A DNA stretch of 64,000 nt from Octopus vulgaris (GCA_951406725.2 OX597831.1:19530001-19594000), one strand, 5' to 3'. Shown: positions 1,942 through 56,349, counted from the stretch's first letter. The notes: generated by a model not told the origin, from the sequence alone. Made by a program: numbers and translations.

Positions 1942-1992
1942 AGCTTCTACAGGACTAGAACTGTTTCATTCAAGAGAAATCATCAGGAAGCT
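1942..1992 (-). ncRNA. Type I hammerhead ribozyme, family A
   Basis: Minus strand reads AGCTTC-CTGATGA-TTTCTCTTGAAT-GAAAC-AGTTCTAGTCCT-GTA-GAAGCT: 6-bp stem I, intact core, stem III ACAG/CTGT, GUA cleavage triplet. The first stem II pair is a U-U mismatch. Confidence 0.85.
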
Positions 1993-4469
1993 AGTTAACA
2001 AGAATTGTATTGGCATTTATACATTTAGGCAGGTTTAAAGGGGTGGTGGGGGGGACTTTTTGGGGGTAGGCATAGCGCAAGAATATCATACTTGGGGGAG
2101 TGGTCAAGGAGTCAGTGGTAAATTAGATAAAAGAATAAATAAAAGAATAAAAAAATATATAGAAGAATAGAGTTTTAGGTAAATAAGGAGATTCTCACTT
2201 AAACATATACACATATGTATATATATACACACACACATACACATATACATACACACACACACATATATACATCTATATATACACACATATATATACATAT
2301 ATATATATATATACATATATATGCATATATATATACACACACACATGTATATATACACACACGACCACACATACATATACACACAAAAAATATATACATA
2401 CACACACATACACATACACACATACACACACATATCCACATACACACATGCACACACAAGTCCCTATATACACATATATACATATATATATATATATATA
2501 TATATATATATATATATATATATATATATACATATGTGTACCTATACATACCTACACATGCACACATATACATACAAATACAAACCCATTCCCTAATTTT
2601 AATTTTATTATTATCTTCATTTATTACTTTTGTTATCTTTGACCGCGGGTCACAAGCATCTTGGCTACGACAGCAAGTCCATATATCTTTCTACTTGAAC
2701 ACAAGCACTCACTCACGCACGCACACTCATTAGCACACACACTCACTCATTCGTACACTCATACACATACACGCACGCACGCGTTATATTCATACATACA
2801 TACATCTACATACATTCACATATATACACATACGTACGCGTACCTACAGATTCATGTCTACACGCTTAGAAGACTAGTCCATACATATACACCAATAAAT
2901 ATATATACACACATACATATACACCTACATACAAATACATACATATATATATATATACATATACATATACATATACATATATATATATACATACATACAC
3001 CCATACATACATACATATATACACATACACACACCCACACATATACATATACATACATATACGCGCATACATACACATACATATACATACATATACACAT
3101 ACACATACATATATATACATATATATATATATATATATATATAAATATATACATACATACATGTACATACATACATATACATATATACACACACATACAT
3201 ACACATATACACATACACACACATACACATATACATGCGTACCCATACACACACACACGCGCGCATCCATATATACACATAAGTACACACATGCGTAAAA
3301 GTATACATATATCTATACATATGCTTACACATACACACACACACACGCGTCTCCTTATGTTCATATACTTACATGCATACTCAAAAAATAAAAAATAAAA
3401 TATATATACGTGCAGTTATTCATATACATACATGCATACTCAAAAAATAAATAATAAATATTAAGTATATATACGTGCAGTTACCTATTATACAGACGGA
3501 TACATACATATAAACTTACACACACACACATATATATATATATATATATATATATACATATATATATATATACATACTTACACTTATGTACATATACATA
3601 CACACATACATAACTCTACGTACCTACATATACATAAACACACGAGCGTACACGTATATGTACATATACACATACACACACATACATACATACATATACA
3701 TACACACACACACATATATATATATATATATATATATATATATATATATATACATACATATACATACACACACATACACATACACATATATATATATATA
3801 TATATATATATATATACATACATATACATATACACACATACACACACACATATATATATACACACACACACATACATATACATACACACATATATACATA
3901 TATATATATATACATATATACACATATGTGCATACATACATACATACTCATACACACACACACACACTTACACATACATATATACACACACTTACATATA
4001 TATATATATATATACATACATATATATATATATGTACATATACACACACATATTCACATATATATATACATATACACATATATATATATATACCCACACA
4101 TACACGTACACACATATATACATATATACATACATATACACACATACTCACACACACACATATATATACATACACACACATACACATACATTTATATATA
4201 TACATATACATACACATGCACATACGTATAACTCTACATACCTACATATACATACATATATATATACACACACACATATATATATATATATATATATACA
4301 TATATATATATACCCATCTACAATCTGTATATACACACACATACATGCACATACACATAACTCTACATACCTACATATACATCGACATACTCGCGTACAC
4401 TTATATATATATATATATACATATACACATATATATACATATATATATATATATATGAATATATATATA

Positions 4470-6750
4470 TACTTTGATACTTTGATACTTTGATAGGTTT
4501 CGGCCATTATTGGCCCAGGCCATGTCTAACTTAATAGCACCACCTGGTGAAGTCTTTCAAGTCAGAATTTGGGCACTATGGCCCACTCAAGTAGAGAGTT
4601 ATTGTTTACAGAGACATATCCGGGTGTAGGGGGTTTATCCGGGATTTCTTGAAGGAATCTGTCCAAAGACTTCTTGAACCCTATAGGGTCAGTTTCTGTT
4701 TTAATGTGTTTTGGTGTAATGTTAAAGAGAGCGGGGCCAATTGAGGTGAAATAATTGTGCCGTATTGTTGTTATGAGATGAGAGTGCGATTTTTGTTTTG
4801 GGCGGATGGCACGGGGCCCAAGCCTTGGATGTACCTTAAAGGTGATGCCAACATCATTTGGGCAATGCTGATGGAATATTTTCCACATCATGCAGATGAT
4901 GTAGCGCTCACGACGACGTTGGAGAGAATAGAGTTTTAGCTTTTCTAGTCGACCCCAATAGTCGAGGCCTGTCATGCCATCTATATTTTTTGTGATTGCC
5001 CTTTGAGGTGCTTCGACTTTTATGATACCTTGTATTGTGTGGGGAGACCACAGTGGACAACAGTATTCAAGGTGGGGTCGGGCAAAAGTGGAGAAGAGAA
5101 GGATAATGGTGTGGATATCTCTCGACTGGAAAGTTCTGAGAATCCAGGAACACATTCTGCGGGCCATGTCAACTTTGGTGTTTATATGAGTGGCCCAGCT
5201 TACGTTGTTGTCCACAATTACTCCCAAGTCTCTGATGTTGTTGGACGCCGCGAGAGTTTCACCTGAAGGAAGGGAGTATGGGAGTTTCAGGGCATCCTCT
5301 TTTCCAAAGTGGATTAGCTCAAATTTATCCTCGTTCAGCAGCATATTGTTTTTTTCTGCCCATTGGATAACAGCCAGTAGATCTGACTGAAGGCATGTCC
5401 GGTCACTCGCCTCATTTATGACCTTCTGTAGCTTGGAGTCATCTGCAAAGATTTTTATGTTGCTGTGCTTGATGATGTCATTAATGTCATTAATGTAAAT
5501 GATGAAAAGAAGTGGGCCCAGCACAGTGCCTTGCGGAACGCCACTACTGACTTTGGCTGGGCTTGATTTTACCCCTTCAACTACAACATGTTGAGATCTG
5601 TCTGTCAGGAAACACTTAATCCATTTCAGTAACTTTCCAGAGACACCAATGTTGGATAGTTTTTTCAATAGGATCTTGTGATCGACCCTGTCGAATGCCT
5701 TACTGAAATCAAGGAAGATGACATCGGTGTTGGAGCCCTCTCCCAAAGCTCTCAAAATGTCCTCAAAGTGATGCAGGAGCTGCGTTAGGCAGTCCCTTCC
5801 ATTACGGAACCCATGTTGGTTGGAGATCAGCCGTCTGTTGCTTTCCAAAAATTGGGTTATTTGAGATCTCACCACCCTCTCAAATAGCTTGATGATATGA
5901 GAGGTGAGTGAGATCGGACGGTAATTCACTGCAAGGGACTTGTTTCCCTTTTTGAAAACTGGGACAACAGACTGGGACAGAAGGTTTTTTGGAATATAGC
6001 CAGCATCCAGTGAGTTTCTCCACAGATTAGCAAGGGGACATGCAAGTTGGTGTCGACACACCTTCAGGACACAAGCAGGGAACCTATCGGGGCCTACTGC
6101 TGAATTGTGTTTTATTTCGTTTATCGCCGCTAAGACATCAGGGGCACTAAACGTTATGTCCGATATAGTGTGTTGGGGGTTGACATCACTGATACAGCCC
6201 AGATCGGCCATATCAGGATTGCTGAAAACAGAGCAGTATTGTTTCTGCAGTATCTCAGCCATGGATTTGGCATTATCTTGGAGAGTGCCAGTTTCGTCAA
6301 TTAGAGGGCCTACAGTGGAGACAGTGACCCTGCGTTTCCTCACAAATGAAAAGAATACTTTGGGGTTGAGTTTGATTTTTTCAATGGCCCACTTCTCCTC
6401 AGCTGATCTTTGGTTATTGATGAGGGACTTCATGCATTGTTGGAGGTTATATTTTTTGGATTCAAGCAGTGCGATAGCCGTCGAATGTGTGTGTTGCTGT
6501 TGGCAGTACTTTAGTTTGTTAATTTTTTTGTTTGTTCTTTTTATTTTTCTGATAATGGTTTTTCTGTTTTGGGGGATTCTGCACTTTTTGTTCACAGGTC
6601 TTGGTGGGGAGTGTTTTGCACATATGTCTGTGACGGTGTCTACAAAGATCTGCCAAGATGTTTTATGGTTGGTGGAGATGTGTGTATGTGTAAAGGACCA
6701 GTCAACATTTGATAGCTCGTTCCTGATTGCATCCCAGTTGGCTTTATGGA
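4470..6750 (-). mobile_element. 5'-truncated CR1/Jockey-group LINE (RT domain and 3' UTR, (ATCAAAGT)n tail), copy 1
   Basis: Uninterrupted frame 4562..~6750 with [42 protein letters not shown] and RPHLEYC motifs. Ends in an 8-bp tandem tail that abuts (TA)n. No endonuclease domain is present. Confidence 0.93.
4562..6750 (-). CDS. Non-LTR retrotransposon reverse transcriptase (partial ORF2; the N-terminal 20 aa of the called ORF are microsatellite)
   Basis: ORF 4562..6811- with all non-LTR RT motifs. Confidence 0.9.
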
Positions 6751-54640: not shown

Positions 54641-54704
54641 CACTACGATCGTTTCATGCCTGCTAACATCTTCAAATTTTTGAGTCGCAGTCATTCATCA
54701 GGTG
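54641..54704 (-). ncRNA. Type I hammerhead ribozyme, family G
   Basis: Minus strand CAC-CTGATGA-ATGACTGC...GCAGGCAT-GAAAC-GATC-GTA-GTG; palindromic ACGATCGT stem III, short 3-bp stem I. Confidence 0.78.
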
Positions 54705-56349
54705 GTTTAAATATTTTTCTTGGCGAGGTTTAAACAATGAACTCATTGTATATATATATATATATATATATATATATATATATACATATATACACACACA
54801 ATGAAAAACGAAGAACAAACGCAAAAAATATAAACGCGAGGACTTGGTACATGTAAAGTATAAGCCAACGCTCAGGGAAAGAAAGAAAAGTGGTTTTACG
54901 TTCCGAGCAAAGTTCATCCTTAGAAAGAAGAGACAGAGGTAAGTCCAACAGAAAAGGAAGACAGAGGGAAAAAATCACCGACGATTCACATTTGGATACA
55001 TTGTATATATATATATGCCTGGTAGTTATCCTATAGGTTTCTTTTGGTGAACCGTTAGGTTATGGGGACATAGGCAAACTACCACCGCTTGACCAGCAGT
55101 AGTATGGAACGAATATACATATATACATATTCTGTGTATGTGTATATATATATATATATATATATATATATATATATGCAGTGAGCTTGTTTCAGGTTCT
55201 ACAAACCTAATCCAATCAGGATCTTTGGTTGAGCAGAGGCTTCGGCAGAAGGCACCTGACCACGTTCAAGTACAGGGAGCCCAAAGCTATTCGGTCGTGA
55301 ATCTCATCTGTTACCAGACACCTACGATTGTACCTATATGTGTGAGTGTGTTGTGTGCCTGTGTATGTGTGCAACATGTGTGTGTGTATGAGTGTGTTCG
55401 TACGTGTGTTTTGTATATATGTATGAACGTATGTATTCATGTATGTATGAGTGTGTGCGTGTGTGAGTGTGTATGTGTGTATGTAAGTATGTATATGTAG
55501 TATTGTGTTGATATCTCTAAATTACGTATGCCAGATCATTATTGACTGGAAACGCAAAGCATTGTATATCGTTAAGTCTGCGTATGCTATATTGACACCT
55601 GCCGTTCCACTGTGCTTTAACATGTTTCTATTTGAAGACACAATTTAATCCTAATTCTTCAATTAAATATTTATGTGAATTCCTTCCTCGTTTCCACTTT
55701 GAATGCAACTTTCCCATCATCTAAACTAATTTCGCAACCGTTTCATACCGGGGGGAAAAAATCAATTATCTTTCTTTCTCTCTCCGAATTAAAGAAACAA
55801 AGTTGGGCAATAATTCCTTTCTAAACCTATTTCTCTATCACAAAGATTTTATATCTACTCATGGCAGTAAATATTCTAAGATTGGAAACATAAGAAAGAT
55901 TATTAAATTCGTTTATTTCTATTCAGGTAATAATAGAGGGCCGTAGAGCAGAACACAGGATCGAAAAGTCTCTAAAAGTATTAAATTTCATCTGCTGTAA
56001 GTTCTGAATTCAAGTCATTTTCAATTTCACAAAACCAATACAAATTTTTAATGTACCGCACCCGATTCAATCTAGCATGTGATGGACCAATAGAACGATG
56101 GCCAAAATATCTGTAGTATTTAATTACAGCCACTTGCGATCTGATTTCAATTCTTGTGACTTCTGACTGTCATCATTTCAGAATCGATAAAATAACGCAA
56201 TCAGTTATGTTGAAATCACTTCAGTTTCAATTCCTCCTCTAGTTTCGAGCACATTGAATAGAAAGATGGCGTCACTAGTATCGCTTTTCTCTGGATCCGG
56301 TCATATGATGTGCTCACTTTCATGCTGGTTATGGCTGATCTGCGTCATC

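Follow-up and report, generated by a model that had tools for sequence, protein, structure and literature searches.

Hammerhead motifs in the window

The 64-kb stretch of Octopus vulgaris DNA considered here (GCA_951406725.2, OX597831.1:19530001-19594000; hereafter the window) is 35% GC, has 12,365 bases masked as short tandem repeats, and carries hammerhead ribozyme motifs from nine families of repeats, among them Penelope-like elements (PLEs). A strict descriptor for type I hammerheads (exact CUGANGA/GAAA core, at least three pairs in each of stems I and II, at least two in stem III, and domain II tolerated up to 130 nt) returned nine motifs (cores 1986-, 8046+, 15424-, 15916-, 16468+, 40708+, 54122+, 54701-, and 62064+), all with the type I core and three helices open at helix I. 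Shuffling the non-microsatellite sequence in 2-kb blocks gave a mean of 0.18 motifs for dinucleotide shuffles (maximum, 2; n = 100) and 0.17 for trinucleotide shuffles (maximum, 2; n = 100), and the reversed window gave none. With one core mismatch permitted, there were 11 motifs in the window compared with 1.0-1.6 in the controls. An initial annotation of this DNA had argued that the pairing kept by the differing stems speaks against chance.

That annotation had proposed about 17 hammerhead or hammerhead-like motifs from about eight families, and a hammerhead-like motif is present at all 18 of the sites it listed, which fall into eight hammerhead-bearing repeat families (A-H). Eight of the 10 sites it called intact pass the strict descriptor, while 14633+ and 40700- have exact cores and fail on their stems, the former through mismatches in stems II and III absent from most of its relatives and the latter through a one-base bulge in stem I at the center of a palindromic duplication. 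All eight sites described as variant or decayed are homologous to hammerhead-bearing repeat families, with changes that are either family-wide or private to the copy. A ninth family (I), beyond the range covered by the annotation, is represented by an intact motif (62064+) in a young ~230-bp element with copies that are 96-99% identical. A scan against Rfam, dominated by microsatellite-driven miRNA matches and uninformative, had no hammerhead family among the 150 matches listed of 288. The features, in window coordinates, are:

1856-7513, minus strand: 3' part of a family A Hydra-type PLE, with the end of the open reading frame (ORF) at 7383-7513 (tblastn, 95-100% to the family A ORF; 20 genome loci), a microsatellite-rich 3' region, a LINE-like (long interspersed nuclear element) reverse transcriptase (RT) piece within it, a hammerhead, and a tail ending in (TA)n
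1942-1992, minus strand: hammerhead A, core 1986, with a 6-bp stem I, a 12-nt domain II with U.U at its base, a 16-nt near-palindromic stem III, and a GUA site
8040-8090, plus strand: hammerhead A in an inverted 5'-truncated copy (~7573-8095; 98% inverted match)
14625-14740, plus strand: hammerhead B, core 14633, domain II ~81 nt; a decayed copy of an older family (~82% identity to relatives)
14921-14955, plus strand: minimal hammerhead F1, with the core CCGACGA at 14925, an additional A following A9, and ACGU as stem III
15099-16688, both orientations: family C insertion, a non-coding 492-bp unit in 2.3 tandem copies on the minus strand and an inverted copy on the plus strand, with (TA)n flanks
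15326-15432, minus strand: hammerhead C, core 15424; stem I has 8 bp and the 68-nt domain II is rod-like
15818-15924, minus strand: hammerhead C, core 15916, passing the strict descriptor
16460-16566, plus strand: hammerhead C, core 16468, in the inverted copy, passing the strict descriptor
18112-18237, plus strand: hammerhead G, core 18116, family-wide U4C, domain II ~100 nt, private A13G
39548-39583, plus strand: minimal hammerhead F2, core CUGUCGA (A6U), stem III decayed
40656-40706, minus strand: hammerhead A with a bulged stem I, left arm of a head-to-head palindrome (40651-40757)
40700-40754, plus strand: hammerhead A, core 40708, right arm of the same palindrome (40651-40757), passing the strict descriptor
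41041-41095, minus strand: hammerhead H, core 41089, left arm of an inverted duplication (40890-41459), stem I broken in this copy
41244-41298, plus strand: hammerhead H, core 41250, right arm of the same duplication (40890-41459), stem I broken in this copy
49408-49493, plus strand: decayed hammerhead of a D-related family, core 49414 (C3U), 55-nt domain II, 70% to 54086-54243
51421-51458, minus strand: minimal hammerhead F2, core 51453 (A6U), stem III decayed
52775-53647, plus strand: 5'-truncated family D PLE ORF, with the end of the RT region, an Asn-rich linker, and, C-terminally, a GIY-YIG-like endonuclease
54117-54198, plus strand: hammerhead D, core 54122, 53-nt domain II, ~470 nt 3' of the PLE stop codon
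54641-54704, minus strand: hammerhead E, core 54701, in an element of ~340 bp; domain II is 39 nt long and stem III a perfect 8-nt palindrome
54894-54927, minus strand: F-type motif, core 54923, heavily decayed with four changes and probably dead
62060-62144, plus strand: hammerhead I, core 62064, 58-nt domain II, in a ~230-bp element, missed by the initial annotation

Masked self-BLAST joins 1986-/8046+, 40700-/40708+, and 41089-/41250+ as inverted pairs and the three C motifs as a single tandem-plus-inversion insertion, and together with element anatomy suggests that the 18 motifs stem from about 13 insertions. The motif count is therefore inflated over insertion events by tandem and inverted copies.

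Compared with relatives in the genome, U4C is a family-wide core change in family G and in subfamily F1, as is A6U in subfamily F2, while private decay accounts for A13G at 18116+, C3U at 49414+, the broken stem I at 41089-/41250+, and the four changes at 54923-. Among F-type motifs, 30 of 42 have a U at core position 6, where an A is normally required in hammerheads. Subfamily F2 (39552+ and 51453-; loci L137-L160) is abundant and older (~80% identity), with the U6 fixed. Of the known core variants, U4C considerably lowers in vitro activity and A6C gives low activity, and both U4C and a U10.1-U11.1 mismatch are described as natural variants (PMC3088659).

Genome-wide load and local enrichment

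The genome searched comprises 2.8 Gb in 227 contigs, from which fifty 10-kb stretches, placed at round positions over 25 contigs, were sampled as background, along with 10 stretches (100 kb) flanking the window. Strict matches numbered 10 in the 500-kb background (one of which, L068, looks false, with one match in the reversed control), eight in the flanks, and nine in the window, corresponding to 20, 80, and 140 motifs per Mb, respectively. The initial annotation had called the region a hotspot, and a moderate local enrichment is present, about 7-fold by motifs and 4.7-fold by insertions, over a background that is itself genome-wide and with a count inflated by copies. There were six insertion events in the 64-kb window compared with 10 in 500 kb (binomial p = 0.006, for a window that was pre-selected) and six in the 100 kb of unselected flanks (p = 0.04). 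Runs of (TA)≥6 occur 19.8 times per 10 kb in the window and 9.6 times in the background, and this doubled density explains part of the excess. Target density is not the full explanation, as the 50 background stretches have nearly equal TA density with (10.3) and without (9.4) a hammerhead match.

At 9-10 matches per 500 kb, the whole genome would by extrapolation contain some 50,000 strict motifs (about 23,000-100,000 as the Poisson range), with F-type minimal motifs adding a further eight per 500 kb. A whole-genome pattern, with a 40-70 nt gap and one type of 8-nt stem III and with no pairing required in stems I or II, had 12,491 matches (6,244 + 6,247), compared with 63 (33 + 30) for the reversed pattern. 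The hammerhead load is genome-wide and the window region moderately enriched, based on the matches in the background sample and the excess of the pattern over its control, and the genome likely holds tens of thousands of hammerhead motifs, one arm being unusually long in many of them. As a sample of this already known phenomenon the window is modestly enriched, and the cluster is not special.

Pairing of the stems, palindromes, and domain II

Pooling 240 loci with the window yielded 108 distinct motifs in 25 sequence clusters. Among the first 30 matches of the whole-genome pattern, which required no pairing in these stems, stem I had at least four pairs in seven of 17 distinct types (permuted mean, 1.1; maximum, 6 in 10,000) and stem II had at least four pairs in 10 of 24 (permuted mean, 3.1; maximum, 10 in 10,000). 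In an alignment of the family I group (12 relatives), both sides change in 11 of 25 pairs, a number reached by none of 500 shuffles, though relatedness inflates such tests. Covariation had been put forward as a check by the initial annotation, and in stems I-III of a type I hammerhead it is found through this group and the cross-family permutation. Additionally, compensatory changes preserve the stem III palindrome in family H (ATCGAT/ACCGGT) and, as variants, in family I, and stem I in family C, while internal loops past stem I were seen in several families.

The palindromic stem III, claimed previously for several of the motifs, extends beyond the window: it is perfect in 28 of the first 30 of the 12,491 unselected pattern matches, all from the start of contig C1, where only four of the 16 permitted centers are palindromic. 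As a self-duplex, stem III has a predicted energy of -6.0 to -13.6 kcal/mol compared with 0 to -1.4 kcal/mol as a hairpin, and a palindromic stem III with an unstable monomer hairpin is what defines dimer-type hammerheads. For two tandem C units, the double-hammerhead fold (-178.1 kcal/mol) lies 1.1 kcal/mol above the minimum free energy (-179.2 kcal/mol) and 7.7 kcal/mol below two monomer folds (-170.4 kcal/mol). Self-cleavage of the motifs is predicted from these sequences.

Domain II measures 39-100 nt in B, C, D, E, G, and I and 12 nt in family A. Long arms are not confined to the window, as 14 of the 18 strict matches in the 600-kb unselected sample have a domain II of at least 25 nt and nine of at least 39 nt, one of the nine being probably false. 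The arm folds as a rod with z values between -1.4 and -4.5 compared with shuffles in families C, D, E, and I, while several domain II arms fold no better than shuffles.

Penelope-like carriers

At all 15 family D loci, including the copy in the window, the hammerhead lies 3' of an ORF for an RT with a GIY-YIG endonuclease and on the same strand, with 14 exact cores and one with a single mismatch. The window holds the truncated 3' part of this RT/endonuclease gene (ORF 52775-53647), which occurs in high copy (17,606 candidates at first look, of which 150 were scored), and longer family D ORFs, up to 693 aa, possess RT motifs. Family D has the CxxC and CxH motifs and 36-41% identity to family A pieces, and is graded as Hydra-like, not as a member of the Hydra clade, because it lacks the CxCX5C linker. 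Long in-frame Asn-rich low-complexity insertions occur between the RT and endonuclease of family D proteins (window 52937-53225; L126-L135).

A related ORF was present in five of 10 long stretches around family A hammerheads. Its C-terminus matches the window at 7383-7513 (-), and 1856-7513 is therefore read as one PLE end with nested insertions, probably a single insertion with its inverted truncated copy at ~7573-8095. At locus L110, motifs and alignment place the RT together with a C-terminal GIY-YIG endonuclease in one frame, with RWR (for RWK), DKT, CxCX5C (CNCPDKTTC), CxxC (CDLC), and CxH (CMH); a CCHH motif was not seen by eye in this protein. RWK, DKT, CxCX5C, CxxC, and CxH, with CCHH absent, are described for the Hydra clade (PMC8557442, section 11), and by these features family A appears to be a Hydra-type PLE. 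It departs from Hydra in possessing a YGFK motif, as GxKF/Y is given as not conserved in that clade (PMC8557442). In four of the five family A ORFs (L108, L119, L123, and L124), the RT and endonuclease are in different frames with the same break point, while L110 reads through; the shared break could reflect either a shared non-autonomous sublineage or an assembly error. Naiad elements were ruled out for families A and D, as the endonuclease is C-terminal. For the PLE ORFs there was no relevant match in Pfam or PDB, and a homologue search gave 253 relatives, of which the 120 listed bore no informative name.

Three Pfam RVT_1 ORFs in the window (4562-6883-, 8086-9855+, and 48138-49349+), considered as the source of the load, had to be set aside as drivers, since they do not match the PLE probes and have a LINE-like look. 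They end in a short tandem-repeat tail, as do LINEs, which we presume them to be. A LINE-like RT piece occurs twice, inverted, with one copy inside the family A insertion and one next to it (4478-6108 and 8309-9939; 99% identity, separated by 2.2 kb); an older relative (69%) lies at 10733-11766.

Non-coding families and their insertions

Family C was recovered as 40 full-length scored matches of 99-100% identity on many contigs. Its insertions are 5'-truncated partial tandems with an inverted truncated copy; they end 3' at either position 388 or position 492 of the unit, and both orientations are present at 12 of 20 loci. No ORF of at least 120 aa was found in the insertion at 15099-16688, and each unit of this non-coding tandem repeat has its type I hammerhead, the arrangement that marks a retrozyme. 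Contigs from four of 24 runs, none recorded as RNA, had no pile-up of molecule ends, and contigs cannot show ends or circles. By its sequence, family C is a young retrozyme-like 492-bp tandem unit with Penelope-type insertion anatomy.

Two alternative 3' ends are also found in A, D, E, and G, a pattern that the 'tail' of PLEs in PMC11167929 resembles. The anatomy of PLE insertions is found as a whole: 5' truncation, partial tandems, an inverted 5'-truncated copy, an optional tail, and a (TA)n target. Families E, F, H, and I are elements of 150-340 bp with fairly fixed ends. Because upstream PLE ORFs were sought with Hydra-like probes only and in 1.5-kb flanks for most loci, it is from anatomy only that the driver of the ORF-less families can be read, and this anatomy suggests that B, C, E, F, G, H, and I are mobilized by PLE proteins.

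Several other repeats were noted. About 32 kb past the end of the window, a retrozyme-like tandem array with a 359-bp period (L062, 19624001-19634000, ~2198-9676) has at least 22 hammerheads with the core CCGAUGA (U4C), seven on one strand and 15 on the other. A young family at 52547-52640 (+), with a partial relative at 40417-40541 (-), has the parts of a hammerhead in a non-canonical order (stem III 3' strand, AUC site, and stem I 3' strand; GAAA with stem III; stem I with CUGAAGA; pairings by eye); the initial annotation did not include it, and its 40 full matches that were scored are 98-100% identical, with tandem arrays of ~830 bp among them. A SINE-like (short interspersed nuclear element) repeat of ~200-400 bp with an internal duplication occurs at 21974-22372, 26236-26469, 26924-27131, 35723-35866, 43132-43581, and 59118-59516. 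Inverted duplications with no detected hammerhead, at 374-1535, 12269-12577, 27878-28512, and 50343-50410, are possibly other PLE-type insertions.

Comparison with known systems

Hydra elements with hammerheads and (TA)n targets have been published (Craig et al. 2021, PMC8557442), the Octopus bimaculoides element Hydra-1_Obim among them. Shared with that clade are the single ORF with RT and C-terminal GIY-YIG and the motifs DKT, CxCX5C, CxxC, and CxH (family A), as well as the (TA)n target, a type I hammerhead near the 3' end, a near-palindromic stem III of 3-4 bp, and inverted 5'-truncated copies. The families here differ in domain II, which does not exceed ~26 nt in any of the 26 rows for Hydra in File S2 of PMC8557442 (loop 2 of 3-10 nt) and 39-100 nt in B, C, D, E, G, and I; a long loop 2 (~30 nt) is listed there for two plant PLE-X rows marked as deviating. 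Further, the 3' region of family A is several kb long and microsatellite-rich, and family D has an Asn-rich linker without CxCX5C.

Hammerheads at PLE ends, in thousands per genome and with a palindromic stem III and opposite-strand pairs, were described by Cervera and de la Pena (2014, PMC4209133). Family F matches the minimal metazoan hammerheads of that paper in the extra nucleotide between 9 and 10.1, the G10.1-C11.1 pair, the short stem I, the palindromic 15.2-16.2, the mostly solitary occurrence, the opposite-strand pairs 100-700 bp apart, and the thousands of copies per genome. The U6 of F2 and the C4 of F1 are not mentioned in the sections of that paper considered here, and the other families here differ in having a real stem III and a long domain II. 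The load is also different, with estimated tens of thousands here compared with 2,000-9,000 in S. mansoni, coelacanth, and Xenopus (PMC4209133).

Retrozymes have been proposed as non-autonomous derivatives of PLEs (PMC7229834; Li, Clavereau and Pollet 2026, 10.64898/2026.07.22.740005). Like the metazoan retrozymes without long terminal repeats (PMC7229834), family C is a dispersed non-coding tandem repeat of low GC with one type I hammerhead per unit. The unit of 492 bp is somewhat above the 150-450 bp given in PMC7229834 and within the 51-972 bp given in 10.64898/2026.07.22.740005, and family C differs in its 68-nt domain II and in its PLE-like inversion and tail anatomy. The short palindromic stem III, dimer cleavage (predicted here), and PLE association are common to the small PLE-associated variants covered by a review (PMC6765202).

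What is already published is the PLE hammerhead, the dimer-type palindromic stem III, and an octopus Hydra element, and what differs from the known systems is the folded domain II of 40-100 nt in many families. Lunse, Weinberg and Breaker reportedly treated small PLE hammerhead variants and their dimer cleavage, and may already include long-stem-II, U4C, or A6U variants. A literature search on octopus or cephalopod hammerheads and long stem II, which left out subscription papers and bioRxiv supplements, found no paper on long-armed PLE hammerheads, and the work of Lunse et al. may treat them.

Proposed mechanism and alternatives

The large and diverse load of ribozyme-bearing PLEs and retrozymes that the initial annotation had suggested is supported, with families A and D linked to PLEs, family C retrozyme-like, and the genome-wide pattern at 12,491 matches compared with 63. 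We consider it probable (roughly 0.85) that the motifs fold as type I hammerheads and lie at the 3' ends of PLEs, of Hydra type where an ORF is attached, and of short non-coding elements likely borrowing the same enzyme, with cutting predicted to occur as dimers. Based on the fold energies and on published dimer behavior, two hammerheads, in a tandem transcript or in two transcripts, would pair through their stem III palindromes and form the active core, and the RNA would be cut at GUH to unit length or trimmed. The PLE RT/endonuclease would then copy the RNA into (TA)n runs, as published for Hydra (PMC8557442), and repeated insertion into TA-rich DNA, earlier elements included, would build local clusters. 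The long domain II folds as a rod that projects from helix II and stays clear of the catalytic core; probably it is tolerated, with its pairing maintained, and is not needed.

Several results sit poorly with this account. The ORF of family D lacks the Hydra CxCX5C linker and has an Asn-rich stretch instead (L126), and covariation in this family is weak (five of 27 pairs among 16 relatives, a number reached by 28 of 500 shuffles). Under the flank and probe limits given above, a same-strand upstream PLE ORF was found in none of the loci of B (0/15), G (0/15), H (0/15), F (0/25), or C (0/20) and in only one of 20 for E and one of 15 for I; for B, E, F, G, H, and I combined, two of 105 loci have a Hydra-like ORF in the 1.5 kb upstream. 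Mutating the hammerhead of an anole PLE left insertion in vitro unaffected, with no reads ending at the site (PMC11167929), and eight of nine Xenopus retrozyme dimers were uncleaved in vitro (10.64898/2026.07.22.740005). Subfamily F2 has spread while carrying U6, and as A6C is a low-activity change (PMC3088659), cleavage may be dispensable for some families.

Such observations fit a reading in which the hammerheads are mostly passengers inherited from PLE ends, weak or dead and unneeded for the spread of most families, a reading that we regard as rather unlikely. The fixation of A6U in the abundant F2 and of U4C in G and F1, with its considerable cost to in vitro activity (PMC3088659), the anole insertion that does not need hammerhead cleavage (PMC11167929), and the suggestion floated in PMC8557442 that hammerheads may simply parasitize PLEs would all be expected of passengers, whereas the core and the pairing retained over ~25 sequence clusters with different stems and the compensatory changes in the stem III palindrome (H and I) and in stem I (C) would not. 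This retention and compensation point to selection at the RNA level over evolutionary time. We consider it doubtful that the long domain II serves as a module with a function of its own, for instance by docking the PLE protein, by making tertiary contact with stem I, or by acting as an internal promoter. Across families the arm ranges from 12 to 100 nt with no sequence in common, 12 nt of domain II suffice for the young family A to spread well, and several arms are no better than shuffles, with apical covariation weak in D; a module would nevertheless account for the folding beyond shuffles of the C, D, E, and I arms (z between -1.4 and -4.5), the arms of at least 39 nt in nine of 18 unselected strict matches (one probably false), the covariation in the family I group, and the recurrence of lengths of 53-61 nt in unrelated families. 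That the window is a special locus, either a selected ribozyme cluster or a programmed insertion hotspot, or that its inverted copies are assembly artefacts, is very improbable: the same inverted and tandem anatomy is present at many loci (both orientations at 12 of 20 for family C) and is the described PLE pattern (PMC8557442), and the (TA)≥6 density of 19.8 compared with 9.6 covers part of the excess of insertion events (p = 0.006 for six in a pre-selected 64-kb window compared with 10 in 500 kb; p = 0.04 for six in 100 kb of flanks) that would favor such a locus.

Significance

In the boldest version, which we think improbable, this genome would be one of the largest and most varied animal hammerhead libraries, with tens of thousands of copies from dozens of families. 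Most of it would escape size-limited descriptors owing to the long, folded helix II arm evolved by Hydra-type elements here, and this arm would have a job of its own, such as protein docking or template selection. Since a limit of ~20 nt on loop 2 misses roughly half of the strict motifs here, ribozyme counts for such genomes are likely too low. Hammerheads are nearly universal in canonical PLEs, yet are dispensable in the sole in vitro system. The comparative set described here includes very young high-copy families, with intact cores in A, C, D, and I, fixed core changes in G and F, and domain II lengths of 12-100 nt. If this account is true, the young families with fixed U4C or A6U would be a natural test of the role of cleavage in Penelope-type mobility.

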